The notes under the pieces are model-generated. The model saw nothing but the letters and a program-made list of their open reading frames with translations. It was not told the DNA's origin and ran no database searches. This document shows positions 4,814 to 61,774 of a stretch of 64,000 nt of DNA, piece by piece; the stretch's first letter is position 1; each line of letters begins with the position of its first letter. The translations under genes and the position numbers were made by a program. The stretch comes from an uncultured Phycisphaeraceae bacterium. GTDB lineage: Bacteria; Planctomycetota; Phycisphaerae; UBA1845. The DNA is taken from positions 4,508-68,507 of the forward strand of contig CAZMVD010000006.1 in assembly GCA_964569425.1 (NCBI GenBank), read 5' to 3'.

Positions 4814-6503
4814 ACCGCCCGTGATGCAGACCGGCGGCCGCACGATGCTCGGCCTGCTCTTTCGCATCAAGGCCCGCACGGTAGGTAATCGTATCGCGCA
4901 GGCGGTCGAAACGGCGCCCCTGCGGATCACCGCGGCCGTGGTGCTCATTTCGATGATCTGGGTCGGATTGTACTGGATGTTTCATCTGGTCTTCGACCAG
5001 CTCAAGCGTTCGCCGCTCGAATCCACCGTGGCCATTCCCCTGGTCTTCAACTTCTTTTTCGTCGCCATGCTCGTGCTGCTGACTTTTTCCAACGCGATTA
5101 TCGCGTATGGCGCGCTGTTCGGAAAAGACGAGTCTTCCTACCTGCTGGCCGCACCGCTGACTGCGCTCGACGTCGTCACCCTCAAGTACACCGAGAGTCT
5201 GTTTATGGCCAGTTGGGCGCTCGTACTGCTCGGCTTCCCTCTGATGATGTCCATGGCCGAGCTGGCCGACGATCGCCTGTTCTATTTTCTTTTTCTCGCC
5301 TTTTTCATAGCCTTCATTCCCATTCCCGGCGCTCTGGGGATGCTGCTCGCCTGGGCGGCCGCGCGGTTTTTCCCGCAGCGGCTGCTCCGCGCGCTGGCGG
5401 TCGTCGCGGGGATCATTATCGCCGCCTTGATACTCGCGGGCCTGCGCTCGCTGCACCTGGGCGAAACCGCCGCCGAGCAATGGCTCAAATCGTTTCACGC
5501 GCGCATGGGTTTCGTGCAATCCGCTTTCCTGCCCAACAACTGGGTCGCCGCCGGAATCGACTGCGCCATGAATCATCGGCTCGCAGAATCCGCGCTCTAT
5601 CTGGGCGTCACCGTCGCCAACGCGCTGTTTCTCAGTTGGCTGACGGTGACGCTGGTCTCCCGGTATTTCGCCGCCGCGCTCGATCGCGCCTCCACCGGCA
5701 AGGCCACCGGCCGCCGTCCGGCGTCGGAAGCGTCCGGTGGATTCTCCGGCTCCGTTTTCTTCTACCTGCCGCGGCCGCTGCGGCTGATTGCGGCCAAGGA
5801 CCTCCGCACGTTTCTGCGCGATCCGCTGCAATGGAGCCAACTGGCGATTCTCTTCGGTCTGCTCGCCTTGTATTTGTCGAACATGCCCACGTTGCGCTTG
5901 CAGCTTTCCGGGTTGCGCTGGTACCTCATCATTCCCTACCTCAACCTGTGCGCCGTCAGCCTGATCCTGGCGACCTTCACCTGCCGTTTCGTGTTCCCGC
6001 TGATGTCCCTGGAGGGCGGCAAGCTGTGGCTCATCGGACTGTTGCCCTTGCCGCGCGGAGACGTGCTTTATGCCAAGTTTGCCTTCGCCATGACCGTGAC
6101 GCTGCTCGTCGCCCTGGCGACCATGATCCTGGCGATCGTGATTCTGCAGCTTTCCCTGGTGTGGTCGGTCATCCATCTGAGCGTGATTGTCGCGGTGTGC
6201 TTCGGGCTCTGCAGTTTCTCGGTGGGGTTGGGCGCCCGCCTGCCGCTCTTTGGCGAGACCAACGCGGCGCGGATCGCCAACGGTTTGGGTGGAACCACCA
6301 ACCTGCTCGCATCGGTGGCGTTGGTGGCGGCCGTACTGACCGCGGTGGGCATCGCCACCTGGCGATCGCGCTTTTTGCCCGAGGACCAGCTCCCCGACCG
6401 CGGAGCGCTCCTGCTGTGCGCCGCGGCGATCGTCGGCAGCCTTGCCGCCGGGGTGATCGCCCTGTCGCTGGGCCGACGGCATTTCGAGCGCGTCGAGGTG
6501 TAA
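4806..6503 (+). CDS. Polytopic membrane protein, putative ABC exporter permease
   Basis: 565 aa with about 10 or more hydrophobic segments. Its start overlaps the ATPase gene by 8 nt, so it is operonic. Confidence 0.75.
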   Translation: MPEPPVMQTGGRTMLGLLFRIKARTVGNRIAQAVETAPLRITAAVVLISMIWVGLYWMFHLVFDQLKRSPLESTVAIPLVFNFFFVAMLVLLTFSNAIIAYGALFGKDESSYLLAAPLTALDVVTLKYTESLFMASWALVLLGFPLMMSMAELADDRLFYFLFLAFFIAFIPIPGALGMLLAWAAARFFPQRLLRALAVVAGIIIAALILAGLRSLHLGETAAEQWLKSFHARMGFVQSAFLPNNWVAAGIDCAMNHRLAESALYLGVTVANALFLSWLTVTLVSRYFAAALDRASTGKATGRRPASEASGGFSGSVFFYLPRPLRLIAAKDLRTFLRDPLQWSQLAILFGLLALYLSNMPTLRLQLSGLRWYLIIPYLNLCAVSLILATFTCRFVFPLMSLEGGKLWLIGLLPLPRGDVLYAKFAFAMTVTLLVALATMILAIVILQLSLVWSVIHLSVIVAVCFGLCSFSVGLGARLPLFGETNAARIANGLGGTTNLLASVALVAAVLTAVGIATWRSRFLPEDQLPDRGALLLCAAAIVGSLAAGVIALSLGRRHFERVEV

Positions 6504-12872: not shown

Positions 12873-15131
12873 ATGACCAAGGCAAGACAGAGGGGGCGGG
12901 AGAGGCAAGGGGTCGTCGGTTCAGGTGCTGCCAGGTTTCGCGTCACAACCTCCGGATTGGCCGCCGTGCTCCTGATGAGCGCACTCGTCGCCGCCGCGCC
13001 GCAGTTCATTGCAGTGGAGCGGCCGCCGGCCATCGAGTTTCCGGAAATGTTCGTCCCGGATGAATTCGTGGTGGAATTAAGCCTCAACGCACGGCGACAG
13101 GTGACCGTAGCGCAGAACGCGGATCGTCCGCGGGTCAGTATCGCCGGTTTGCAGCGTGCCCTCGACGACGCAGGCGTCGTGGGGTTCCGGCAGCAGTTCG
13201 TGGGCGCCAAACCGCAGCCGGTAGGTGGGAAGTATCCGGACTTGACCGGCTACTACACCGTCAAGATCGGCGCCGGGGTAGACCTGAAGGCGGCGATGGA
13301 TACCTTTGCGCGGAACCCGCATGTCGCCCGCGTCGAGCCGATCGGGATCCACCCCATTCACGCAGAGCCCAACGATCCGTACTACCGCGACTCGCCGAAT
13401 CCGAACTTCCCCTTCGACCAGTGGCATTATTTCGACCGTGGGTCGGAGGCCCACAGCATTCAGGCAGACCAGGCGTGGGACCTCAACGCGGGAAGCCCGA
13501 CGGTGTATGTGGGCATTCTCGATTCGGGCGTGCGGTATTATCACTGGGATCTGGGGGGATCGAATCCGCCGGGTCCTTCAGACAACGTGACCAACGGCAA
13601 CATCTTCATCAACCTGGGTGAAATCCCTGGAAACGGCATCGACGACGACGGCAACGGCTTCGTGGATGACGTGGTGGGCTACGACTTCGTGGCGTCTGCC
13701 TCCGGCGGCGCTGGTTGTCAGTGCAGTGATTCGGACTGCGGAACTGTCGATAACGATCCGCGCGACCACAACGGCCACGGCACGCACGTAGCGGGCACCG
13801 TCGGCGCGATCACCAACAACAACGTCCTGGTGGCGGGTGTGGCCGGCGGTTTGGCCGGGGGCACGTCCACCAGCACAGCGAACGGCATCAAGATCATTCC
13901 ACTGCGAATCGGCTGGAACGCCAAGTGCTTCGGAGCAGACGGGTACGGTTTCGTCAACATGGCTTATGCCGCATCGGCCATGAACTACGTGGCCAACCTG
14001 GTGGACCAGGGGTACAAAGTGGCGTCGATCAACTGTTCATGGGGCTCGTCCAATTCGGGCGGCATCGACGCGGCGGTCAATGCGCTGTTGGCGCGCAATG
14101 TGTCCGTGATTCACGCCGCGGGCAACAGCAACTCGAGCAGCTCGGACTACTTGGGCACCAAGGCCGGGGTCATCAGTGTGGCAGCAACCACCCGCACAGG
14201 CACCGGGGCCAGCTTCACCAATCATGGATCGTGGGTGGAGGTCGCTGCTCCGGGCGTGGAAATCCTGAGCACCTATCACCACTTCCCCGATCCGGCCAAC
14301 GATTACATCGCGCTTCTGGACGGAACGTCGATGGCGGCGCCGCACGTCGCGGGCATCGCTGCGCTGCTCGATTCTTGCGTTCCAAACCTCAGCGGGACGG
14401 ATAAGCGCAACCTGATCATGAACAACGTTCGTCCGTACAGCGACAGCCGTAACCTCGGCACGGGCATCGCCAACGCCAAGTTGGCGCTCCAGGCCGCCGG
14501 ATGTTCGTCCGCGCCGCAGTGTTCGACCAATGCCGACTGTAATGACGGGGACGCCTGCACGACGGACGTCTGCTCGAACGGACAGTGCTCCAATACGCCC
14601 ATCAATTGCAACGACGGCAACGCCTGCACGACCGATAGCTGTTCAGGCGGGGCGTGTTTCAATGATCCCATCACTTGCAATGACGGCAACGCCTGCACGA
14701 CGGATAGCTGCAACTCGTCGAGCGGATGCGTGTTCACGCCGATCAACTGTGATGACGGCAGTTTGTGCACGACCGATTCGTGCAGCAACGGGGTGTGCTC
14801 GAACACGCCGATCAACTGCAACGACGGCGATCCGTGCACGAGCGATAGCTGCAATCCCAGCACCGGTTGCGTGAACACTCCGCCTGCCTGCGGCCCGTCC
14901 GACGGCTGCTGCCCGTCGGGGTGTTCTTCCGGAAGCGATCCGGACTGCGCCGCCGGACCGGTGTGCGGAAATGACATCTGTGAAATCAGCGGCGGCGAAA
15001 ACTGCACCAATTGCCCGGCGGACTGCAATGGTGTTACGACTGGTCGCCCGACCAATCGGTACTGCTGCGGAACGGACGTCAATTGCAGCGATCCGCGCTG
15101 CACCGGAAACGGCAATACTTGCCAGCCGTAA
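12873..15131 (+). CDS. Secreted S8 (subtilisin-family) serine peptidase with C-terminal Cys-rich repeats
   Basis: Catalytic triad contexts VGILDSGV, HGTHVAGTVGA and GTSMAAPHVAGIAALL. C-terminus has 5 units of about 24 aa of C-N-D-G-x-x-C-T-x-D-x-C. Confidence 0.92.
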   Translation: MTKARQRGRERQGVVGSGAARFRVTTSGLAAVLLMSALVAAAPQFIAVERPPAIEFPEMFVPDEFVVELSLNARRQVTVAQNADRPRVSIAGLQRALDDAGVVGFRQQFVGAKPQPVGGKYPDLTGYYTVKIGAGVDLKAAMDTFARNPHVARVEPIGIHPIHAEPNDPYYRDSPNPNFPFDQWHYFDRGSEAHSIQADQAWDLNAGSPTVYVGILDSGVRYYHWDLGGSNPPGPSDNVTNGNIFINLGEIPGNGIDDDGNGFVDDVVGYDFVASASGGAGCQCSDSDCGTVDNDPRDHNGHGTHVAGTVGAITNNNVLVAGVAGGLAGGTSTSTANGIKIIPLRIGWNAKCFGADGYGFVNMAYAASAMNYVANLVDQGYKVASINCSWGSSNSGGIDAAVNALLARNVSVIHAAGNSNSSSSDYLGTKAGVISVAATTRTGTGASFTNHGSWVEVAAPGVEILSTYHHFPDPANDYIALLDGTSMAAPHVAGIAALLDSCVPNLSGTDKRNLIMNNVRPYSDSRNLGTGIANAKLALQAAGCSSAPQCSTNADCNDGDACTTDVCSNGQCSNTPINCNDGNACTTDSCSGGACFNDPITCNDGNACTTDSCNSSSGCVFTPINCDDGSLCTTDSCSNGVCSNTPINCNDGDPCTSDSCNPSTGCVNTPPACGPSDGCCPSGCSSGSDPDCAAGPVCGNDICEISGGENCTNCPADCNGVTTGRPTNRYCCGTDVNCSDPRCTGNGNTCQP

Positions 15132-22399: not shown

Positions 22400-22471
22400 C
22401 TCCCCGACTAGGATTCGAACCTAGAACCTAGCGGTTAACAGCCGCTCGCTCTACCATTGAGCTATCGGGGA
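22400..22471 (-). tRNA. tRNA-Asn (anticodon GTT)
   Basis: Manual cloverleaf of the reverse complement: TCCCCGA TA GCTC AATGGTA GAGC G AGCGG CTGTTAA CCGCT AGGTT CTAGG TTCGAAT CCTAG TCGGGGA G. It has a 7-bp acceptor stem, TTCGAAT T-loop and GTT anticodon. CCA is not encoded. Confidence 0.93.
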
Positions 22472-23590: not shown

Positions 23591-23637
23591 CATTCGCTAT
23601 TCTCGATTCGCCATTCGCCATTCGCGGCCGTTCGGCG
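23591..23637. repeat. Heptamer tandem repeat, C family (CATTCGC)
   Basis: cattcgc tattctc gattcgc cattcgc cattcgc ggccgtt cggcgga. Confidence 0.8.
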
Positions 23638-23972: not shown

Positions 23973-26900
23973 ATGAACCCTCACCATCACTTTTGCTCAA
24001 GGCACCATCATCGTCACGCTGCCCGCGGTTTGCTACTCTTTTCCTTTGCCGCCGCGCTGGGCGCAAGCCTTGCACTTGCCCGGCCGGGCGATGTGCGCGC
24101 CGGCACCGAAGTGGCGCCGTGGCTTCCGCCCGACACGCCGCGCTGGGCGACCGCCCCCCTACCGCGCGATGGGGCCAGTTTCAGCCTCGCGGATGCGCCA
24201 ACCATCAATCTCGACGACCCCCAGGCCGTCTTCGATCACGTCATCGCCTCGTTGCCCGACTCGGTGGACGTCATCCCCACCGAAAACTACACCTATTGGC
24301 GCTTCCACACGGCCGACAAGTACGTTTGGGGCAACCTGCGCCTCGAACCCGACACCCGCGATCAGGGCATCATCCACATCGGCTATTACGAATTCCGCGA
24401 AGAACTCACCGGCCCCGAAGAAGCCAATCCGCGCTATCGGCAGCTTGACGTGGGCGACGCACTCCGGCGCGTCGACGACTTCACCTACGACCTCACTTAC
24501 GGAGGCCGCACGGTCCGTTTTCTGCTCAACCGCGTCGACCAGCATGAACCGCTGGCCTTCAGGCTCGGCGAAGGCGAACGCTTCGTCATGCGCACCGAGG
24601 ACGAATCGCGCATTCGCTTTCACCTGATCTTCCACGAAGCCACCCGGAACTTCTTCTTCGTGGCCGATGAAGACCGCGCCCCTCTCGACGGCGCCCTCAT
24701 GGTCAGCGACGATCTCGCCCTCGACACCGGCACCGGCTTCCTGTTCTTCGTCGATAAGGCGCGCAACAACCGCAAGATCCTCGTCGGCGTCTATCGCCGC
24801 AACATCGCCCAGAACAACTATTACGACGGACCCGCCGACCAGCTTGCCGACAACTACATCCCGAACGTACCCCAATACAAGTCGTATCTGGAGCAGGCCT
24901 ACCCATTCACCCGCGGCGTGATCGACCAGTTCGGCTTCTACGTTCACGACCCCGGCAGCCGCGTGGCCGTCGCCCCCTACCACTCCTACCAGACCATTAC
25001 CGAAATGCAGGGCATGGTCGACGTGTGCAAAAACTACGGCGGCGTCCCAGAGATGATGGCCTGCATCATGCCCGGCGGCATGCGCCAGGAAACGCCCGAC
25101 GACCCCTCCGCAAACGACCCGTGGGGCGACACCTCCGCGCTGCTCAACCCCCAGGTCGTGTTCTCCGAGGACTGGGAGGGCGACCCCCTCGGCGCCGGCG
25201 GCTGGACGGCGTCAGGCCTTTGGCACCTCACCACCGACAGCCCCGCCACCTGCTCCCCGCCCGACGACTTCGTGTCGCCGGTAACCGCCGCCTACTACGG
25301 CATCGAAGGAGCCTGCAACTACGACAATGGCGGCCCCAACTGGGGAACCCTGACCTCACCCGTCATTCCCAACCTCCCCGATGGTTCGTTCCTGTACGTG
25401 CACTCGCGCCGCGTGTCCGAGGGACGCTGCGGCCAGCGCGACCTGAGCTTCATCGAAGTCTCCGTCAGCGGTGAGATCGATCCGCTCACCGGCTACAAAT
25501 TCCCCATCGGCAAGCGCTGGCAGTTCCTCTTTGAGAACTGCGACAACTCCAACGCCTGGCAGGAACTCGGCCCGCTGAGTCTGGAGCGCTTCGCGGGGCG
25601 CGACATCCAGATCCGCTTCCTCTTCGACGCCATCGACTTTCAGAACAATGGTTTCCTCGGCTGGATGGTCGACGACGTCGCCATTCTCACCGGCGAAAAC
25701 GCCGCCGGACCAGACTATTCCGCGCCCCGCCACATGGGCGGCGTCTCCTGGCACTTGCCTGGTGCCACCTTCCTGCCACCAGGACATCGCCACCTCACCG
25801 GTATGACCTGGCACCAGATCACTTCGACTTGGAACCACCTGGCCGGCCTCTCCTGGCCCGAAAACCCCAATCCCGGCGGTGGCAATCTACACATGTCGGG
25901 AACGACCTTCGTGCCGCGGCCTCGTCCGCGCCCCCGCCCCGGTGGTGGAGGTGGTGGCGCGCCCCCGCCGCGCAAGCCGCCGCACATGGCCGGTACCACC
26001 TGGCACCTTGCCGGCGTTACCGCGCCGCCCCCCGGAGCCAAGCACGCGGCGGGAATCACCTGGCACCTGGAGAACATCACCTTCATCCCGCCCTGGGCCA
26101 AGCATAACTCCGGTTTCACCTGGCACGTCTGGGGCGTGTCCTTCATACCGAAAGACGCCAAGCACGCCGCCGGCATCACCTGGCATCTGGAAGGCATCAC
26201 CTTCATCCCCGGCGGCACCAAGCACATCGCCGGTACCACATGGCACCTGCCCGGAATCACTTTCGTACCTCCCGGCTCCAAGCACGCCGCGGGCATCACC
26301 TGGCACCTGCCCGGAATCACTTTCATCCCGCCGGGAACCAAGCACAATTCCGGCACCACGTGGCACGTGGCCGGCGTCACCTTCATCCCGAAGGACTCCA
26401 AGCACGCCGCAGGAACCACCTGGCACATCGCCGGCGCGACCTTCATCCCCAAGGGCTCCAAGCATAACAGCGGCTCCACGTGGCACGTCGGCGGTGTGAG
26501 CTTCATTCCACCCGGAACCAAGCACAACTCCGGCTCCACCTGGCACTTCGGCGGCCAGACCTTCATCCCACCCGGCACCAAGCACAACAGCGGTTCCACG
26601 TGGCACGTCGGCGGCGTGAGCTTCATACCGCCCGGAACCAAGCACAACTCCGGTTCCACGTGGCATGTCGGCGGCCAGACCTTTATCCCGCCCGGAACCA
26701 AACACAACTCCGGTGTCACCTGGCACGTGGCGGGCGCCAGCTTCATTCCGCCCGACGCGAAGCACAATTCCGGCTTCACCTGGCACTACAACGGACAGAC
26801 CTTCATTCCCGCCGGCACGATCCACAACTCCGGGATCACCTGGCACTACAACGGCCAGTCCTTCATCCCGCCGGGAACGATCCACAATTCCGGCTTCACC

Positions 26901-28826
26901 TGGCACTACAACGGCCAGTCGTTCATCCCACCGGGAACGATCCACAACTCGGGCATTACCTGGCACTTCAATGGGGAGTCGTTCATTCCGGCGGGTACCA
27001 GGCACAACTCCGGCATCACCTGGCACGTGAACGGCGTGTCGTTCATTCCGCCGGGTGCCAAGCACGTGGCAGGCACCACGTGGCATATGGCCGGGGCCAC
27101 GTTCATGTTCCCGGTCATCGGACCGGAAGTCCCGACCGTCGATCCCGAGCAAGAAGGCTCCGGCGATGCGCGCGGCACAGAAGATCCGGCGACCCTGGTC
27201 TACCCGAGCTGCACCGTCCCCGCCGATTGCCCGCCGCTCGAGTGCCACAGCGCGGCATGCAATCCGGAGGACAATCTCTGCGAGTACACCGCCACGCCCG
27301 GCGACCCCTGCGACGACGGCGACCCGGCGTCGACCGGCGATACCTGCAATCAGTTCGGTGATTGCATCGGTGTACTCGTGCCCGGCAATCCGTGCGATGA
27401 CTTCAACCCTTGCACGGGCGGGGACACGATCAACAACATGGGTCAGTGCGTGGGTGCGCCGACCCCGTTCGTACCTTGCGATCCGGGGAACCCCTGCATC
27501 ATCCCCGGCTCCGCCTCCTGCGATCCCATGGGGAATTGTGTCGGTATGTTTGCCGGCGGCATGCCCTGCGACGACGGCGACGAAACCACCCTGGGAGACA
27601 TGTGCGATCCATTCCTGGGGACGTGCGCCGGCAGCTTCGATCTTGACTGCGACGACCTTATGGAATGCAACGGACAGGAGGAGTGCGATCCGCTGATCGG
27701 AGTCATCGCGGGCACACCGCCCGACTGTCTGTTCCCCTGCCAGGGGCTGCACGGCGTGTGCGTCGATAACGACCCGGCCAACTCCGGTTGCGTCGGTCAG
27801 GGCGCCGACGAAAACTTCGACCTGCCCAACGACTGCGCAGAGTCCGAGTGCGACGACTTCCCCGAGCCCGACGTTCCGGTCGATTGCGACGACGACAACC
27901 CCTGCACCGTCGACGATTGCGATCCGTCCACCGGCGATTGCGTCAACACGCCCGTGCCCGACGGAACCACCTGCGACAGCGGCGACGACTGCGCCATCGG
28001 CACCTGCCAGAGCGGCATCTGCGAACGCAGCGTGATCGTCGACTGTACCGGCCTGGACTGCAACCAGAACGGGTTGGAAGACGGCCAGGAAACCGCCGGC
28101 GGCCTGGCCCCCGACTGCAACAACAACCGTCAGCCCGACGAGTGCGACGTCGCGCCCGAAGGTCCGTCGCAAGACCTCAACAACAACGGCGTCCCCGACG
28201 AGTGCGAAGGGCTGGTGAACCCGGCCGCAGTCGCTCCGGCCCCGCACGATCGTCAGAAGAACCGTTACATCTCTTTCGCGCCCAACAACCTCGGCTCCGT
28301 CGCCTTCAAGGTCCGACGCGTTTCGCCCGGACCTGCGGTCGACGTCGGGTGGGTGAGTGCCCCCGATGCCAACGGTTTGGCCAAGATCGAACCGGGACCG
28401 GTTACCCGGGTCTGGAACGAGGCGACCATTCACGGCGGCGATTGCGAGATCGTCCCCGTGGCCGAGTTCGAAGTGCTGGCCACCGCCGACGGCGTCACGT
28501 TCGCGCCGGGGCTGATCGTGCCGACCATCGACCTGCCCAGCGGCGGCAAGTTCTGGGGCGACACGGTGGGCAGCTTCGACGGCATACAGTGGACGGCGCC
28601 GAACAACATCGTGAACGCCAACGACTTCCTGGCGGCCTTGCAGAAGTTCCAGAACCTGCCCACAGCGCCGCACATCACCGTGGTGGATGTGCAGTCGGTC
28701 AGTTCCATCGATCCGTGCCTCAACCGGATCGCCAACATCGCCGACGTGTTCCTGCTGCTCCAGGCGTTCCAAGGCAACGCCTACCCCTTCACCACCAACC
28801 CGGCGACCTGTCCGCCCTGTCCGTAG
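23973..28826 (+). CDS. Giant (1617 aa) secreted multidomain protein: unknown N-domain, MAM/galactose-binding-like domain, 20-aa His/Trp repeat array, Cys-rich repeats, shared CPxCP C-terminal domain
   Basis: ATG at 23973 preceded by ggagg. His-rich signal-like N-terminus MNPHHHFCSRHHHRHAARGLLLFSFAAALGASLALA. Contains GGWTASGLWHLT...IQIRFLFDAIDFQNNGFLGWMVDDVAI, then the repeats described in the next feature, then the Cys-rich and C-terminal domains. Confidence 0.85.
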   Translation: MNPHHHFCSRHHHRHAARGLLLFSFAAALGASLALARPGDVRAGTEVAPWLPPDTPRWATAPLPRDGASFSLADAPTINLDDPQAVFDHVIASLPDSVDVIPTENYTYWRFHTADKYVWGNLRLEPDTRDQGIIHIGYYEFREELTGPEEANPRYRQLDVGDALRRVDDFTYDLTYGGRTVRFLLNRVDQHEPLAFRLGEGERFVMRTEDESRIRFHLIFHEATRNFFFVADEDRAPLDGALMVSDDLALDTGTGFLFFVDKARNNRKILVGVYRRNIAQNNYYDGPADQLADNYIPNVPQYKSYLEQAYPFTRGVIDQFGFYVHDPGSRVAVAPYHSYQTITEMQGMVDVCKNYGGVPEMMACIMPGGMRQETPDDPSANDPWGDTSALLNPQVVFSEDWEGDPLGAGGWTASGLWHLTTDSPATCSPPDDFVSPVTAAYYGIEGACNYDNGGPNWGTLTSPVIPNLPDGSFLYVHSRRVSEGRCGQRDLSFIEVSVSGEIDPLTGYKFPIGKRWQFLFENCDNSNAWQELGPLSLERFAGRDIQIRFLFDAIDFQNNGFLGWMVDDVAILTGENAAGPDYSAPRHMGGVSWHLPGATFLPPGHRHLTGMTWHQITSTWNHLAGLSWPENPNPGGGNLHMSGTTFVPRPRPRPRPGGGGGGAPPPRKPPHMAGTTWHLAGVTAPPPGAKHAAGITWHLENITFIPPWAKHNSGFTWHVWGVSFIPKDAKHAAGITWHLEGITFIPGGTKHIAGTTWHLPGITFVPPGSKHAAGITWHLPGITFIPPGTKHNSGTTWHVAGVTFIPKDSKHAAGTTWHIAGATFIPKGSKHNSGSTWHVGGVSFIPPGTKHNSGSTWHFGGQTFIPPGTKHNSGSTWHVGGVSFIPPGTKHNSGSTWHVGGQTFIPPGTKHNSGVTWHVAGASFIPPDAKHNSGFTWHYNGQTFIPAGTIHNSGITWHYNGQSFIPPGTIHNSGFTWHYNGQSFIPPGTIHNSGITWHFNGESFIPAGTRHNSGITWHVNGVSFIPPGAKHVAGTTWHMAGATFMFPVIGPEVPTVDPEQEGSGDARGTEDPATLVYPSCTVPADCPPLECHSAACNPEDNLCEYTATPGDPCDDGDPASTGDTCNQFGDCIGVLVPGNPCDDFNPCTGGDTINNMGQCVGAPTPFVPCDPGNPCIIPGSASCDPMGNCVGMFAGGMPCDDGDETTLGDMCDPFLGTCAGSFDLDCDDLMECNGQEECDPLIGVIAGTPPDCLFPCQGLHGVCVDNDPANSGCVGQGADENFDLPNDCAESECDDFPEPDVPVDCDDDNPCTVDDCDPSTGDCVNTPVPDGTTCDSGDDCAIGTCQSGICERSVIVDCTGLDCNQNGLEDGQETAGGLAPDCNNNRQPDECDVAPEGPSQDLNNNGVPDECEGLVNPAAVAPAPHDRQKNRYISFAPNNLGSVAFKVRRVSPGPAVDVGWVSAPDANGLAKIEPGPVTRVWNEATIHGGDCEIVPVAEFEVLATADGVTFAPGLIVPTIDLPSGGKFWGDTVGSFDGIQWTAPNNIVNANDFLAALQKFQNLPTAPHITVVDVQSVSSIDPCLNRIANIADVFLLLQAFQGNAYPFTTNPATCPPCP
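25731..27122 (+). repeat. In-frame 60-bp tandem repeat array (19 clean units from 25983, plus 3 degenerate units upstream)
   Basis: Units read HNSGSTWHVGGVSFIPPGTK, HAAGITWHLPGITFIPPGTK and similar. 25983 + 19 x 60 = 27123, so the phase is perfect. Confidence 0.95.
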
Positions 28827-30892: not shown

Positions 30893-31042
30893 AGTTTGCG
30901 CTGGGTCCGCGTCAGTTATTTTATGCGTGGAGCCTGGAGTTATCGGACGAACTATTATAGGACCAAGAAATTTCGGATTGCGGAGTGACGAGACTTGGCG
31001 AAGCGAGCGCTGCGATTAGATACGGAAGAGGCGGATGGCGAG

Positions 31043-31149
31043 AATTGCGAATTGGGGATTGCCAATTGCCGATTGAGCGTTAAGACGTTTCGGCGTTCTC
31101 TCGCCACTCGCCTGCCCATTCGCCATTCTCCTTTCGCCATTCTCGTTTG
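31043..31149. repeat. Composite heptamer repeats (A-like AATTGCN, one B-like unit, C-like CATTCGC/CATTCTC)
   Basis: aattgcg aattggg gattgcc aattgcc gattg ... gacgtttcggcgttc ... cattcgc cattctc ctttcgc cattctc gtttg. Confidence 0.75.
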
Positions 31150-31937: not shown

Positions 31938-34517
31938 CTAACTCAACGCCTCGCGGCGGGTGAAGGCGAGCTTCCCGGCCACAAGCAGCATCAGCCCCAG
32001 CACCACCAGTCCCCACTCCGAAACCGTGGGGATGGCGCCGACGCACCCGGGTGCAAAGACCGCGTCATCCACGCCGGGACACAGATCGTTGCAGTCGTCG
32101 ATCCCGTCGCCGTCGCTGTCGCCGGTTTCAGCTACGCCGCAACCGCAGTTGCCCGGCGCGATCTTGTTGGGATCGTTGGGGCAGCCGTCGTTGCAGTCGG
32201 CGGTGCCGTCGCCGTCGGAGTCGTCGTCGGGCGCGCCGCAGCCGCACTGGCCCGGGTTGATCTTGTTCGGATCATTCGGACAGCCGTCCTCGCAGTCGGC
32301 GGTGCCGTCACCGTCGATGTCGTCGTCCGGCGTGCCGCAACCGCAAATGCCCGGGTCGATCTTGCCCGGGTCGTTGGGGCAGCCGTCGTTGCAATCGGCA
32401 GTGCCGTCGCCGTCGGTGTCGGTATCGGGCGTGCCGCAGCCGCACTGCCCGGGAGCGAGCTTGTTCGGATCCTGCGGACATTCATCGCCGCAGGTCTCGT
32501 CCGTGCCGTCGCCGTCGGCATCCCCCTCGCAGGTGGTGCCGTCGCCGACATAGGTTCCTCCGCCGGCGGTGCAATCGGTCGGCGTCACATCCGCGGTGCA
32601 GGCGCCGTTCGTGCAGCAGGCGCCGATGCAATGAAACTCGGCATAGAAGCCGGGGCTTCCGATGTCGCCGTTGGCCGAGGCATAGGAATTCTGCGAATCA
32701 CCTACGCTCGCCAGCCGCCACAGGAAGATGTTGTCGGCGCCCACCGCATCGCGGCACGGCCAGCCGGCAAACCCGTTGGTGCGGATGGTGCCGGGGAAGA
32801 CCTGGTCCCCGTAGGTGAGCCGATCCTTGAGTACGCCGTTGCCATCGTAAAGGTTGATCTGATCTGCGCGGCCGAGGTTCACCGTGTTGGAGCCGATGAC
32901 CACGATGCCCGCAAGGCTCCAGTCGGCGATGAAGGTGGCGTCGGGGTCCTCTGCCAGGATGACGGATTGACCGGGCAGGACGACGCCGAACGCGGAAAGG
33001 TCCACGGCGCCCGGGAGGTTACTGTCGTCGTCGTAGCTCCAGCCGGTCATGTCCACCGGATTCGCGTCGAGATTGGTAAACTCGACGTATTCGCCCCCGG
33101 TGCCGGTGTACATGTATTCGGTGATTCGCACGTCGCCGTCGGCGGGCGCTGGACAGTTGGTGCTGCCGCAGTCCGTTCCGTCCCCCTGGTAGCTTCCCCC
33201 CGCCTGCGTGCATTGGGTGTATGTGACATCACTGCACAGCCCCACCGAGCAGCACGCGCCGGTGGGGATGGCGTTGCAAGATACGGCCACGTAAACGCCA
33301 GGGCTGCCAACGTCACCTTGCGACGAAGCCACCGAGCCCTGGCTGTCGCCCACGTGCGAGAATTGCCATTGGAAGATGTCGTTGGCGCCGGCCGCCTCGT
33401 CGCACGGCCAGCCGCTGATGTTCTGCGTGCGAATCGTGCCCGGAAAGTTCTGATCGCCGTAGGTGAGGCGGTCCTTGAGCGTGCCCGAGGCGTTGTAGAG
33501 GTTGATCTCGTCGTTGCGTCCCAGCCCCGCTCCGTTATTGCCAACCACCGGCACACCGACCAGTCCCCAGTCCGCGATGAAGCTCGCCGCGGGCCCTTCG
33601 ACCAGCAGGCCCGACTGGCCGGGCAGCAGCGTGCCGAGTCCGCTGAGGCTGACCGTTCCGGGAATCTGGCTGTCGTCGTCGAAGCTCCAGCCGGTCATGT
33701 TGACGGGCACGTTGTCGAAGTTGGTGAACTCGATGAATTCCGCGCCGGAGCCGGAATACATGTACTCGGTGATGCGGACGTCGCCATCCGTGGGTGCCGG
33801 GCACGAAGTCGTTAGACAGTCGGTACCGTCGCCCTCGTAGACGCCGCCGCCGTTCTCGCAATCAACCTGGGTCACCGGGTCGGAGCATACGCCCGTGGTG
33901 CAGCACGCGCCGGTCGGCGTCGCGCCGCAATTGAACAGGACGAACGCTCCGGGGCTGCCTACCGCACCCCCGGCCGACAGGAAGGAATTCTGCACATCGG
34001 CGACGGCGGAAAGCACCCACTCATACGCATCGTTCGCGCCCAGCCCCGCGGCGCACACCCACCCGCTGGGATTCTGCGTGCGTATGGACCCGGGGAAGTC
34101 CTGATCGCCGAACTGAAGCTGATCGACCAGCACGTTGGAGGCATCCCAGATATTGATGGTGTCGTTTCGTCCCAGCGCGGCCACGCCGCCGGAGCCGCCG
34201 ATGATCTTGACGCTCAGCGCCAGCCCCCACGCCGTACGAAAGGCGGCTTCCGTCGCATCGGTGATGATCACCGATTCGCCAGGCGCGACGCTGCCGAAGG
34301 CGCTCAGATCGAACGAGCCCGGCGTGTTGGAGTTGTCGTCATAACTCCAGCCGGTCATGTCGACGGCCGCGCCGCCCACGTTGGTCAGCTCGACGAACTC
34401 GCCGTCCGGCCCGGTGTACATGTACTCGGTGATGCGAATCTGCGCGACGGCACTCGACGCGCACAAGCCAAGCAGCCCCACGGCCGCCGCCAAACTCGCC
34501 CTCTTCCCTACCATCAT
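31938..34517 (-). CDS. Surface protein: 3 lamin-tail-domain modules, 4 thrombospondin-type-3-like Asp/Cys repeats, IPTL-CTERM tail
   Basis: Start MMVGKRASLAAAVGLLGLCASSAVAQ at 34517 with aggaggg upstream. LTD signatures (I/V)RITEYMY(T/S)G...E(F/Y)(V/I)E(L/F)TN...DMTGWS(Y/F)DDD occur three times. DxDGDGTADCxDGCPNDPxKIxPGxCGCG occurs four times. The protein ends AIPTVSEWGLVVLGLMLLVAGKLAFTRR. Confidence 0.88.
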   Translation of the reverse strand: MMVGKRASLAAAVGLLGLCASSAVAQIRITEYMYTGPDGEFVELTNVGGAAVDMTGWSYDDNSNTPGSFDLSAFGSVAPGESVIITDATEAAFRTAWGLALSVKIIGGSGGVAALGRNDTINIWDASNVLVDQLQFGDQDFPGSIRTQNPSGWVCAAGLGANDAYEWVLSAVADVQNSFLSAGGAVGSPGAFVLFNCGATPTGACCTTGVCSDPVTQVDCENGGGVYEGDGTDCLTTSCPAPTDGDVRITEYMYSGSGAEFIEFTNFDNVPVNMTGWSFDDDSQIPGTVSLSGLGTLLPGQSGLLVEGPAASFIADWGLVGVPVVGNNGAGLGRNDEINLYNASGTLKDRLTYGDQNFPGTIRTQNISGWPCDEAAGANDIFQWQFSHVGDSQGSVASSQGDVGSPGVYVAVSCNAIPTGACCSVGLCSDVTYTQCTQAGGSYQGDGTDCGSTNCPAPADGDVRITEYMYTGTGGEYVEFTNLDANPVDMTGWSYDDDSNLPGAVDLSAFGVVLPGQSVILAEDPDATFIADWSLAGIVVIGSNTVNLGRADQINLYDGNGVLKDRLTYGDQVFPGTIRTNGFAGWPCRDAVGADNIFLWRLASVGDSQNSYASANGDIGSPGFYAEFHCIGACCTNGACTADVTPTDCTAGGGTYVGDGTTCEGDADGDGTDETCGDECPQDPNKLAPGQCGCGTPDTDTDGDGTADCNDGCPNDPGKIDPGICGCGTPDDDIDGDGTADCEDGCPNDPNKINPGQCGCGAPDDDSDGDGTADCNDGCPNDPNKIAPGNCGCGVAETGDSDGDGIDDCNDLCPGVDDAVFAPGCVGAIPTVSEWGLVVLGLMLLVAGKLAFTRREALS

Positions 34518-43995: not shown

Positions 43996-44239
43996 TCCTC
44001 GCTTCGTGCCTCAGTCGGTTTAGATTCCTGCGCAACAATTCGGCAACATTTCACCGCAATGGGCGGCGGGCGCGGCTGGCGGACGCCCAGCGGTCCTGCG
44101 GCAACCGGGGCATCGACAAACCCCGCGGATCATCGGCCCCTTCCCTGCTGACAGGCATCGCCCTTTCCTTGCGTCTGTTTTTCCGCGTTGCTAGATTCCG
44201 CCCGGGAATTGTCCGGAACCATTGAGGAGTTCGCCAAGC

Positions 44240-45238
44240 ATGACGACAACCTACACCGATGTGCGCGCCGTGGCCGCGCAGGCCGAGGAGCGCAGCGCAC
44301 CCTTTCGCCGTTTGCTCGATCAGATGCACCGTGTGATTGTGGGGCAGGATGTCCTGCTTCATCGCATGTTCGTTGGTCTGTTGTCCAACGGGCACCTGCT
44401 TATCGAGGGCGTGCCCGGTCTGGCCAAGACCACGGCGGTGTCCTGCCTCGCGCGCGGCATTCGCACGCGCTTCCAGCGGTTGCAGTTCACGCCCGACCTG
44501 CTTCCTGCTGACCTGATCGGCACGCTCATCTACCGCCCCAACGACGGCACCTTTGCGGTGCAGAAGGGGCCGATTTTCGCCAACCTGATCCTGGCCGACG
44601 AAATCAACCGCGCCCCCGCCAAGGTACAGTCCGCCCTGCTGGAAGCCATGCAGGAGCGGCAGGTCACGATCGGGAAGGAGAGCTTCCCCCTCGACGACCC
44701 CTTTTTGGTGCTCGCCACCCAGAACCCTATCGAACAGGAAGGCACTTATCCACTGCCCGAGGCCCAGGTGGATCGCTTTATGCTCAAGGTGATTGTGGGC
44801 TACCCGTCCAAGGCCGAGGAGCGCGCCATCCTCGATCGCATGGCCTCCACCGCGCCGGACCTGGCCATCGAGCCGGTGATGGAGCCGCAGGACATCGCCG
44901 CGGCGCGCCGCGTGGTGGATGACATCTACGTGGATGACAAGGTCAAGGACTACATCGTGGACCTGACCTTTGCCACGCGCGACCCCAACGCTTACGGACT
45001 GAGGATCGCCGAATGGATTCAATACGGCGCCTCGCCCCGCGCCACCTTGGCGCTCACGCTCGGTGCCAAGGCGACCGCGTTCCTGGCCGGCCGCGGCTAC
45101 GTTACGCCACAAGACGTCAAGACCATCGCTCCCGAAGTGCTCCGCCACCGCATCATCATCACCTACGAAGCCGAGGCCGAGGAGAAGACCAGCGAAGACG
45201 TGGTGCGCGCGGTGCTGGAGCAGGTGGCGGTGCCGTAG
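44240..45238 (+). CDS. MoxR-family AAA+ ATPase
   Basis: VIVGQDVLLHRMFVGLLSNGHLLIEGVPGLAKTT, FQRLQFTPDLLPADLIGT, ILADEINRAPAKVQSALLEAMQE. gaggag SD before the ATG at 44240. Confidence 0.92.
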   Translation: MTTTYTDVRAVAAQAEERSAPFRRLLDQMHRVIVGQDVLLHRMFVGLLSNGHLLIEGVPGLAKTTAVSCLARGIRTRFQRLQFTPDLLPADLIGTLIYRPNDGTFAVQKGPIFANLILADEINRAPAKVQSALLEAMQERQVTIGKESFPLDDPFLVLATQNPIEQEGTYPLPEAQVDRFMLKVIVGYPSKAEERAILDRMASTAPDLAIEPVMEPQDIAAARRVVDDIYVDDKVKDYIVDLTFATRDPNAYGLRIAEWIQYGASPRATLALTLGAKATAFLAGRGYVTPQDVKTIAPEVLRHRIIITYEAEAEEKTSEDVVRAVLEQVAVP

Positions 45239-45244
45239 AAAGCT

Positions 45245-45274
45245 GAAACGCCGAAAGCCGAAACGCCGAAAAAC
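45245..45274. repeat. B-family heptamer repeat, GAAACGCC orientation (left arm of cassette)
   Basis: gaaacgccgaaagccgaaacgccgaaaaac, starting 7 nt after the moxR stop. Confidence 0.9.
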
Positions 45275-45338
45275 AGGGGCAGCGACACGAATGGCCCGGG
45301 GGCCGTAGACGAGACCGCTCAAAGGGAGAAAGAGGGGT

Positions 45339-45704
45339 ATGCCGAGACTTACCGGAGACCTCAAGGAGCGTGCGCTGCAATTCGGCGTAGATATACTCGA
45401 ATTGGTGACCCGGCTCCCGAACGACACGAGGGGCTGGGTGGTGGCCAAGCAGATGGCACGCTCGGCGACCTCCGTGGGGGCGAACATCTGGGAGGCTGAT
45501 TATGCATACTCGGAAACCGATTTCGCGCATCGCCTGAATATCGCCCGAAAGGAGGCGGGAGAGACCATGTACTGGATCGAAATCTGTCGCCGTGCAGGAC
45601 TGTTGACCGCCGATGCGACCGCTGGACTTTCCGCCGAGACCGATGAATTGCTTCGCATCCTCGGCACGATCGTGAAGCGCACCCAGGACCGTGTGAAGAA
45701 ATGA
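45339..45704 (+). CDS. Four-helix-bundle protein (23S rRNA intervening-sequence protein family, TIGR02436-like)
   Basis: LKERALQFGVDILELV..LP......V.KQMARSATSVGANIWEA......DF.HRLNIARKEAGETMYWIEI, the characteristic family pattern. Confidence 0.85.
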   Translation: MPRLTGDLKERALQFGVDILELVTRLPNDTRGWVVAKQMARSATSVGANIWEADYAYSETDFAHRLNIARKEAGETMYWIEICRRAGLLTADATAGLSAETDELLRILGTIVKRTQDRVKK

Positions 45705-45960
45705 GAGAGATTCAGTTGAAAGCCAGAGTGGACAACACCGACTGCATAGTCCGTTGGTTTGTTGCGGGCAATCGTTACGAAGTCGCGGAGCGACACGCAA
45801 CCCGAATACCTGGACAAATGACAATGGGCGGCACTTTCCAATACATTTCCGGCGATTTCCGGTCATCGACTAGGCCGTCCTGTGGTTCTCCCAGCGCCTG
45901 GGTCACGCCCAACGTAGACCCGTCCCTGCGCTATTGGAGCGCCATTCCCAATTGGACGCT

Positions 45961-46003
45961 GTTTCGGCTTTCGGCGTTTCGGCGTTTCGGCTATTGGCGT
46001 TTC
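45961..46003. repeat. B-family heptamer repeat, TTTCGGC(G) orientation (right arm of cassette)
   Basis: gtttcggctttcggcgtttcggcgtttcggctattggcgtttc, ending 5 nt before the DUF58 ATG. It is the inverted complement of 45245-45274. Confidence 0.9.
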
Positions 46004-46008
46004 TCCCC

Positions 46009-46884
46009 ATGATACCCAAAGACGTTCTCAAGAAGGTGCGCCAGATTCAGATCCGCACGCGGCGGACGGTGAACGATCTGCTCGCCGGGCAGTACCACTC
46101 CGCCTTTCGCGGGCGGGGCATGGAGTTCGAGGAGGTCAGCCCCTACCAGTTCGGCGACGACGTGCGCCTGATCGACTGGAACGTCTCGGCACGTTACGGC
46201 GAGCCGTTCATTAAGAAGTTTCGCGAGGAGCGCGAGCTGACCGTCATGCTGGTCGTCGATGCCAGCCCTTCGTCACTGTTCGGCAGCGTCCGGCAGTTCA
46301 AGCTCGACTACGCCGCGGAGCTGTGCGCCGTGCTCGCCTTTTCCGCCGTGCGCAGCAACGACAAGGTCGGGCTGATCCTGTTCAGCGACGAGGTGGAGCA
46401 ATACGTCCCCGCCAAGAAGGGGACCCGCCACGTACTGCGCATCATTCGCGAGCTGCTCTACCACCAGCCGCGCGGCCGGGGCACCGACATCCCCGCCGCA
46501 CTGGGGTTTCTTAACCGCGTCACCCTGCGCAAGAACGTGTGCTTTCTGGTGAGTGATTTTCTTGCCGTGGGCATCGAGCCGGCGCTGCGCATCGCGCGCC
46601 GGCGTCACGACCTGATCCCGGTCATCGTCAGCGACCCGCGCGAGCACCAGTTGCCCGACGTGGGGTTCATCGAACTGCAGGACGCAGAAACCGGCGCCAC
46701 CACCCTGCTGGACACGCGTCATCGCGCCGTGCGCGAAGCCTACGCCGCGGAAATCGCCCGCCGCCGTGCCCAACGCGAATCGTTGTTTCGTCGAATCGAC
46801 GCCCCCACAGTGGAGGTGCGAACGGACTGTTCCTACGTGGATCCGCTGGTTCGATTCTTCCACCGCCGTGAGCTGCGCCGTTGA
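46009..46884 (+). CDS. DUF58 domain protein (MoxR partner)
   Basis: I trimmed the start to MIPKDVLKKVRQIQIRTRR. Contains HSAFRGRGMEFEEVSPYQFGDDVRLIDWNVSARYGEPFIKKFREEREL. Confidence 0.88.
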   Translation: MIPKDVLKKVRQIQIRTRRTVNDLLAGQYHSAFRGRGMEFEEVSPYQFGDDVRLIDWNVSARYGEPFIKKFREERELTVMLVVDASPSSLFGSVRQFKLDYAAELCAVLAFSAVRSNDKVGLILFSDEVEQYVPAKKGTRHVLRIIRELLYHQPRGRGTDIPAALGFLNRVTLRKNVCFLVSDFLAVGIEPALRIARRRHDLIPVIVSDPREHQLPDVGFIELQDAETGATTLLDTRHRAVREAYAAEIARRRAQRESLFRRIDAPTVEVRTDCSYVDPLVRFFHRRELRR

Positions 46885-61624: not shown

Positions 61625-61670
61625 AGAGAATCCTCCGGCGCCGCATCATCGCCGCGCCCCGCGGATCATG

Positions 61671-61774
61671 TCAATTGTCAATTGTCAATTGCCGATTGCC
61701 GATTGCCGGTTGTCGATCTGCAGGTTCGACGTTTGGGCGTTTCGGTTTTCGGCGTTTCGGCTTTCGGCGTTTCT
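61671..61774. repeat. Composite heptamer repeat: A family (CAATTGY/CGATTGC, 6 units) grading into B family (TTTCGGC(G), 5 units)
   Basis: tcaattg tcaattg tcaattg ccgattg ccgattg ccggttg tcgatct gcaggtt cgacgtt tgggcgt ttcggtt ttcggcg tttcggc tttcggcg tttc. Confidence 0.9.

Follow-up and report, generated by a model that had tools for sequence, protein, structure and literature searches.

The question addressed here is why the genes moxR and DUF58, which normally abut, are separated by 770 nt in an uncultured bacterium of the Phycisphaeraceae (Planctomycetota; assembly GCA_964569425.1), and what kind of element the DNA between them represents. The locus lies in a stretch of 64,000 nucleotides of contig CAZMVD010000006.1 (positions 4,508 to 68,507 of the forward strand), hereafter called the window, to which all coordinates refer unless another locus is named. 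The insert contains a gene for a four-helix-bundle (FHB) protein, bracketed by two arrays of short tandem units that are inverted relative to each other and will be called the arms. We compare it with the flanks of other FHB genes, with related moxR–DUF58 junctions, and with the known systems that it resembles. With a probability of roughly 60%, the insert is a widespread compact selfish FHB cassette that is transcribed as part of the operon and whose arms pair with each other, the resulting stem being a putative substrate of RNase III.

All parts of the junction lie on the plus strand. The upstream host gene moxR (44222–45238; Pfam AAA_3 2e-63, AAA_lid_2 2e-23) encodes an AAA_3 ATPase, and its TAG stop codon at 45236–45238 is located 2–6 nt 5′ of the first arm. 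This 5′ arm (45241–45271), delineated by repeat search, Tandem Repeats Finder (TRF) and folding, is composed of tandem GCCGAAA/CGCCGAAA units, with an A-run that extends to 45274. An inner 5′ spacer and leader (45272–45338) follows, which has no homologue among the other loci and has a purine-rich, Shine–Dalgarno-like stretch, GGGAGAAAGAGGGG, at 45324–45337, ahead of the FHB gene. The gene itself (45339–45704) encodes 121 amino acids. It is followed by a non-coding inner 3′ spacer of 256 nt (45705–45960; 56% GC) and then by the 3′ arm (45961–46003), whose tandem units (TTTCGGC/GTTTCGGC) complement those of the 5′ arm, as seen in the same analyses and in the duplex energy. The 3′ arm stops 5 nt short of the ATG of the downstream host gene DUF58 (46009–46884; Pfam DUF58 3.4e-80), a vWA-like member of a Bat-type operon, whose start codon matches that of its orthologues. 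The preliminary description of this locus had given the same gene boundaries and identities, and the Pfam and TIGR02436 searches confirm them. It had also pointed to a lower-GC core, and indeed the cassette has 58.3% GC compared to 64.5% for the window, while the GC content at third codon positions (GC3) is 0.71 in the FHB gene and 0.84 in the flanking genes.

The arms can be aligned in two best registers, one of 27 nt at 93% complementarity (45245–45271 with 45977–46003) and one of 31 nt at 81% (45241–45271 with 45962–45992). Since they are tandem arrays, pairing is possible in several registers. Units of 7 nt take turns with units of 8 nt (TRF periods of 8 and 15), and the window arms are therefore not strict heptamers. 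The arms are located where the preliminary description had placed them, but they are not exact complements. Allowing up to two mismatches, GCCGAAACGCCGAAA occurs 12 times in the window, compared to 0.43 expected, and none of 100 shuffles reached that number. The predicted pairing of about 30 bp is present in both the minimum free energy (MFE) and the centroid fold of 45225–46025, and the arm–arm duplex has a calculated energy of −58 kcal/mol.

The protein is recognized by PF05635 (23S_rRNA_IVP) with an E-value of 3.4e-22 and 79.1 bits (cut-off 33.8) and by TIGR02436 with 92.6 bits (cut-off 24), and it is accordingly assigned to this family, whose genes were originally discovered within intervening sequences of rRNA. 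Its closest relatives of known structure are 2RLD (E = 2e-22) and 2GSC (E = 2e-3), with five chains deposited in each, and it is thus homologous to solved four-helix-bundle pentamers. The dN/dS values across twelve pairs of FHB homologues range from 0.05 to 0.21, indicating that the protein is under purifying selection. The family is very large; a single-sequence search at E ≤ 1e-3 gives 7,735 clusters at 50% identity. Many of the database proteins, P0002 among them, bear N-terminal extensions of 20–40 amino acids, e.g. "KRRNAEKPKRRNKK". These look like gene calls that run through the 5′ arm, which would make them a systematic annotation artefact.

How general the arrangement is can be judged from a census of FHB flanks. 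A metagenome scan with an FHB alignment yielded 80 loci, and a hidden Markov model identified 96 FHB open reading frames (ORFs) over all the loci collected. For each gene, an inverted-repeat score was obtained by aligning 200 nt of upstream sequence to the reverse-complemented downstream sequence (450 nt), with 143 long non-FHB ORFs from the same loci as controls. Among the 73 usable FHB genes the median score is 36, versus 18 for the controls (Mann–Whitney p = 1e-20), and 50 of the 73 lie above the control 95th percentile. The expectation that other FHB genes in general would be flanked by inverted arms is therefore borne out.

The armed genes are built in a quite uniform manner. The best autocorrelation lag, i.e. 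the period, is 7 in 44/50, and the median arm measures 36.5 nt, or about five units. The 5′ arm typically ends 2 nt before the ATG and the 3′ arm begins 5 nt after the FHB stop, while the distance from the upstream host stop to the start of the arm is −0.5 nt (all medians). The heptamers vary widely from locus to locus (CAATGAA, AGTTTTG, ATTTACG, CAAAACT and GCCGATT, among others). For the 53 cassettes whose neighbors could be resolved, both neighbors are on the FHB strand in 39 and both are opposite in 5.

One alternative that can be addressed directly is that the repeats are products of chance or slippage in repeat-prone intergenic DNA and have nothing to do with the gene. In many genomes, no tandem class is as abundant as the heptanucleotide repeats (PMC4679880), and the window itself holds several unrelated heptamer arrays. 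The enrichment of the motif in the window, the contrast between FHB and control flanks, and the co-variation of the arms described below nevertheless refute such an origin, as does a layout that is conserved across phyla.

Information about the unit itself comes from close relatives. Many FHB pairs of 70–93% identity are found in unrelated flanks and share their heptamer type. In the locus L095, two paralogues are about 95% identical between the outer arm ends and unrelated beyond them, and each copy is preceded by a TAA and followed by an ATG. By this comparison, the FHB family behaves as a discrete duplicating unit with the arms as its ends. In a plasmid collection, 30 records contain a relative of the window FHB, half of them from Nostoc, and inverted heptamer arms are present in all five of the plasmid cassettes inspected, which are annotated cases from cultured strains. 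The arms are (AGGTCGG)n in N. punctiforme, (AATTCAA)×4, perfect over 31 nt, in N. flagelliforme, and (GAAAGNG)×13 in Treponema saccharophilum. In Planktothrix agardhii p1 (L177), the FHB gene at 1486–1845 has (CAATCCC)n arms and lies between DISARM drmD and BREX pglX, and in Anabaena cylindrica pANACY.01 (L176) the gene at 1501–1848 has (AAAAAGT)n arms and lies between cas2 and cas1; both of these cassettes are thus inside defence loci. Taken together, most FHB genes across bacterial phyla are armed alike, and this suggests a compact mobile cassette of wide distribution.

We now return to the history of the moxR–DUF58 junction. In 72 related junctions from many phyla, the gap between the two genes is at most 150 nt in 59 cases and at most 40 nt in 33, in line with the view that they normally abut. 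Most of these junctions are short and lack an FHB gene, as would be anticipated for empty sites; seven lineages, including the window, carry a cassette, each with arms of its own. The metagenome-assembled genome (MAG) GCA_964426945.1 has an FHB homologue of 56% identity (P0013) between moxR and DUF58, with inverted (GTCGAAA)n and (TTTCG..)n arms, and the order of GAF response regulator, MoxR, FHB, DUF58 and BatA-like vWA genes is conserved. Five more homologues with 55–67% identity occupy the same junction (L088, L168, L171/L172, L173 and L174). The moxR orthologues are 70–78% identical, and the closest MoxR matches in the contig scan come from Phycisphaerae MAGs, at 70–71%. The placement of the arms is alike in all seven lineages: the 5′ arm starts 0–6 nt past the stop codon of moxR, the 3′ arm is found a short distance ahead of the start of DUF58, and the inner spacers measure from about 20 to about 250 nt.

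The arm sequences differ between the lineages (GAAACGCC, GAAACGTC, GAAACGCA and others). Cognate arm pairs have a duplex energy of −50.6 kcal/mol compared to −38.6 kcal/mol for non-cognate ones, and only 2 of the 5040 permutations over the seven lineages are as good. The two arms thus co-vary. Because seven lineages hold an orthologous cassette whose FHB proteins are just 55–67% identical, a recent insertion is excluded at this site. The window cassette is instead an old, vertically inherited resident with co-evolving arms.

The persistence of the gene at this junction in seven lineages could also mean that FHB serves the MoxR–DUF58 (Bat-type) system as a dedicated accessory protein or regulator, with the repeats as its local regulatory region. 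The junction has, moreover, been occupied a second time. Two Chthoniobacteraceae loci (L034 and L050) carry there an FHB gene with 23% identity to that of the window (94.5 bits against TIGR02436), flanked by (GTGATTG/GTGAATG)n and (CAATCAC)n arms that match over 30 nt at 90%, and this verrucomicrobial cassette represents an independent occupation of the same junction. We nevertheless consider a role as dedicated accessory very unlikely. The gaps of at most 150 nt in 59 of the 72 junctions are too short for such a gene, and FHB cassettes occur in many unrelated operons, including the cas2–cas1 and drmD–pglX contexts given above. The junction also takes other inserts. ORF-less inverted heptamer hairpins are found in 8–9 of the 30 related junctions with gaps of 50–340 nt, in several phyla (L018, L019, L027, L029, L030, L035, L044 and L060), and at this junction they are commoner than cassettes with an FHB gene. 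In Verrucomicrobiota, small GIY-YIG genes of about 90–112 amino acids are also located here (L033, 4992–5264; L047, 5021–5359). These are bracketed by an inverted repeat that is not heptameric (GTCATCCCGAGCGAAGTCGAGGGA...), and L071 has the same repeat pair without a gene at 4999–5246. The GIY-YIG loci constitute a second class of arm-bracketed mini-cassette.

The architecture of the window cassette can be compared with that of the ORF-bearing intervening sequences (IVSs) of 23S rRNA in Leptospira, Coxiella burnetii (helix 45), Xanthomonas and Brucella. In these, a sense PF05635 ORF is enclosed by inverted repeats at the termini, which pair into a stem of about 28–30 bp. In the Coxiella IVS, the terminal stem measures 28 bp, the FHB ORF is in sense orientation, and the ATG is preceded by 3–4 tandem GACAGAT heptamers, the copy number of which varies between strains; RNase III cuts this IVS at the first heptamer repeat (PMC4990558). 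The window cassette shares with the IVSs the terminal inverted repeats that can form an enclosing stem and the sense FHB ORF in its loop, and with the Coxiella IVS also the tandem units between the 5′ end and the ATG, so that the IVS-like architecture proposed earlier is upheld and extended to the Coxiella heptamers. Both groups also include ORF-less versions, and both have a sporadic distribution that suggests horizontal spread. The host transcript is different, however. The cassette resides in a protein-coding operon and no rRNA helix (9, 25 or 45) is replaced, and as it lies outside rRNA it does not qualify as an IVS by location. Likewise, no rRNA was found in any of 20 census loci with ORF-poor flanks. 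Two further differences are that the Coxiella ORF shows decay and is probably not translated, in contrast to the purifying selection on the FHB family here, and that RNase III cleavage, which excises IVSs without re-ligation, has been demonstrated for IVSs and is a prediction for the window cassette.

Based on these similarities, the following scenario can be put forward. The cassette would have inserted long ago precisely between the moxR stop and the DUF58 start, co-oriented with the operon, and would thereafter have been inherited vertically, probably within a planctomycete clade. As it lacks an evident promoter, the cassette is expected to be read within the operon transcript. In this RNA, the FHB segment would be closed off by a duplex of about 30 bp between the arms, in the manner of the ORF-bearing 23S IVSs. 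The most likely consequence is cleavage of the stem by RNase III, which would part the moxR, FHB and DUF58 segments and thereby make the insertion tolerable; it might also uncouple moxR from DUF58, as the preliminary description suggested.

The segment downstream of the FHB gene was examined for other signals. One weak sigma-70-like promoter site was detected, at 45818–45847 inside the inner 3′ spacer, and a terminator scan found none. The spacer has a GC3 of 0.62 and no coding signature, its fold is nothing unusual (z = −0.29), and neither a homologue nor an FHB remnant was seen in any of the loci compared. An Rfam scan of 44900–46300 gave no match at E ≤ 1. The locus L172 has spacers of comparable size to these 256 nt, unrelated in sequence. 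An ORF of 103 amino acids at 45701–46012 was considered as a possible gene and rejected, as it has no Pfam match, its GC3 is 0.62 compared to 0.84, and its C-terminus is translated arm. Its ATG overlaps the FHB stop and its stop overlaps the DUF58 ATG (ATGA in both cases), and it is probably an annotation artefact.

A number of observations weigh against the scenario of an operon-borne cassette with pairing arms. An inner 3′ spacer of 256 nt is atypical, as the family median for this distance is 5 nt. The fold of the whole 801-nt region is only marginally better than those of shuffled sequences (z = −1.9). The 5′ arm typically overlaps the ribosome-binding region of the FHB gene, and pairing would block translation of FHB, which is hard to reconcile with the purifying selection on the protein. 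About 30% of the FHB genes are armless; in one such orthologous group (L110/L127/L133/L154), every FHB stop codon overlaps the beginning of the gene that follows, and these genes may represent a subfamily that has been domesticated or has another function. No target-site duplication was seen at the L095 paralogues or at the window cassette, and no mobilizing enzyme was found, the cassette encoding no transposase. Finally, among the arm mismatches of 60 cassettes, G:T and T:G number 87 and A:C and C:A 93, i.e. there is no G:U excess. Such an excess would be expected if the stem were selected only in the sense RNA, and its absence means that the arms may owe their complementarity to the DNA level, whether to templated correction or to a role as DNA ends.

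This last result leads to another explanation, namely that the element operates as DNA. The arrays would then be terminal repeats, or hairpin or cruciform ends, that are recognized or recombined as DNA, and RNA pairing would be a by-product. The ORF-less arm pairs of the window and of 8–9/30 related junctions would be non-autonomous derivatives, similar to miniature inverted-repeat transposable elements (MITEs) or to REPINs, the inverted pairs of repetitive extragenic palindromic (REP) sequences. Besides the missing G:U excess and these ORF-less pairs, the exact coincidence of the unit boundaries with the outer arm ends and the presence of paralogues with the same arms in unrelated contexts fit this explanation, and the dispersed arms of 25–50 nt could allow cassettes to be exchanged by homologous recombination. 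Of the features of a transposon or MITE, inverted ends and discrete boundaries are thus present. On the other hand, no target-site duplication is visible, the strong co-orientation with host transcription (39 versus 5) is not required for a purely DNA-level element, and the cassette has no gene for a transposase, recombinase or nuclease, although a factor could act in trans. No catalytic site is known in FHB, a small bundle of helices. We regard the DNA-level explanation as possible, although on the unlikely side, and it is compatible with pairing in the RNA.

A precedent for a gene between inverted repeats is provided by the REP-associated tyrosine transposases (RAYTs), where the gene lies between inverted short repeats that are also dispersed as ORF-less inverted pairs, as is the case here. 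This likeness in layout adds to the case for a DNA-level element. RAYTs are HUH/Y1 transposases with imperfect-palindrome REPs, however, whereas FHB is a non-enzymatic helical bundle and its repeats are tandem heptamer arrays; the window gene is PF05635 and its arms contain no REP palindromes, so that the cassette is not of the RAYT/REP type. The top-scoring control gene of the census is itself a RAYT-like ORF (L123, 2158–2811; MPNHFHLL motif) with 37-nt REP-type palindrome flanks.

It should be pointed out that the window contains only one FHB gene but several arrays. An ORF-less sister element on the minus strand, identified by motif search and folding, has GCCGAAA arms at 2043–2067 and 2217–2274. 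It lies between two co-directional minus-strand genes, its RNA folds into a long stem (z = −5.55), and its non-coding core of 149 nt (52% GC) shows no similarity to the interior of the FHB cassette. A single array of GCCGAAA-type units (61732–61773, minus strand; motif search and TRF) has no partner in the window. It adjoins TGTCAAT and ATTGCCG heptamer arrays (61669–61726) and lies upstream of a minus-strand gene. The presence of GCCGAAA arms without an FHB gene at 2043–2274 and 61732–61773 shows that the arms can exist independently of the gene. Two further arrays, of GAATTGC and CATTCGC type, at 31042–31148 (TRF and fold; no strand assigned) fold as a short-loop hairpin with z = −3.37. Another intergenic heptamer array is located at 23591–23625, and some arrays of the window use CAATTGN or CATTCGC units. 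In total, there are five intergenic sites of tandem units of about 7 nt, as in the short tandemly repeated repetitive (STRR) sequences.

The classical intergenic repeats of cyanobacteria include heptamers of the CCCCAAT and TTCAAAA types. FHB arms use STRR-type heptamers of both kinds, in Planktothrix (CCCCAAT phase) and in N. flagelliforme (TTCAAAA phase). Like the arms, the intergenic heptanucleotide repeats, such as TTCAAAA in Nostoc 7120 and TAACTGA in Beggiatoaceae, are tandem 7-nt units that occur near start codons and have no settled function. Unlike the arms, they have been described in the searchable papers as direct repeats or regulatory elements and not as inverted pairs around an FHB gene. 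The Nostoc 7120 study treats the TTCAAAA repeats as regulators with a postulated partner, the Beggiatoaceae study describes the TAACTGA repeats upstream of start codons, and neither mentions FHB genes. Apart from the note on the Coxiella IVS heptamers, we found no published link between FHB genes and flanking inverted heptamer arrays, subscription-only papers being outside the search.

The dispersed arrays lead to the question of whether the arms could be putative binding arrays for the FHB protein, whose homologues are pentameric in crystals. The protein would then regulate its own gene and also act on the dispersed ORF-less arrays. Arrays of the same heptamer do exist away from the gene, and the protein is under purifying selection. 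The heptamer type is particular to the FHB lineage, and this holds even where one contig bears two cassettes (L114 and L094); the median arm of about five units can be set beside the five chains of 2RLD and 2GSC. The TTCAAAA-type repeats for which the Nostoc study postulates a partner correspond to the FHB arm heptamer of N. flagelliforme. However, the match between FHB lineage and heptamer is explicable by co-inheritance alone, and the window protein has a net charge of about +1 by count and is hence not markedly basic. The inverted arrangement of the arms is also left unaccounted for by binding alone, and we therefore judge this possibility to be unlikely.

A related protein with such properties is Avd of the diversity-generating retroelements (DGRs), which belongs to the PF05635 family and shares its fold with the window FHB. 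Avd binds nucleic acid and reverse transcriptase, which lends some plausibility to a nucleic-acid partner for FHB. The L034 FHB has a weak match to the Avd model NF033474 (27 bits), and the window FHB has none at E ≤ 1e-3. In contrast to Avd, the window FHB neighbors moxR and DUF58 and no adjacent reverse transcriptase, the rest of the window not having been searched for reverse transcriptases or for template and variable repeats (TR/VR). A more speculative extension, which we consider doubtful, is that FHB cassettes and dispersed heptamer arrays, including those of the cyanobacterial STRR type, form one system. The pentameric FHB would be the partner of the arrays and bind both its own arms and the ORF-less copies. 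It would either propagate the arrays, as a RAYT/REP-like selfish network that might involve an RNA intermediate and a reverse transcriptase as for Avd in DGRs, or modulate the expression of the numerous operons in which they occur.

Outside these elements, the only match in the whole window at the Rfam gathering threshold is a tRNA (22400–22471, minus strand). Long tandem repeats (60/120, 69 and 99 nt) are present at 26031–27065, 14544–14711 and 32086–32471.

The reading as a compact selfish cassette that is carried in operon transcripts would bring together three matters that have been without explanation for decades, i.e. the ORF-bearing 23S IVSs, the very large FHB family that includes the Avd of DGRs, and the intergenic heptanucleotide repeats of cyanobacteria and other phyla. 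If it is correct that they reflect one type of cassette, the rRNA IVSs would be a rare special case of an element that lives mostly between the cistrons of operons. For genome annotation, the arms matter in that FHB ORFs are often extended through the 5′ arm by gene callers. Inserted with stop-to-start precision and equipped with a conserved protein, the cassette may cut polycistronic mRNAs or insulate them.

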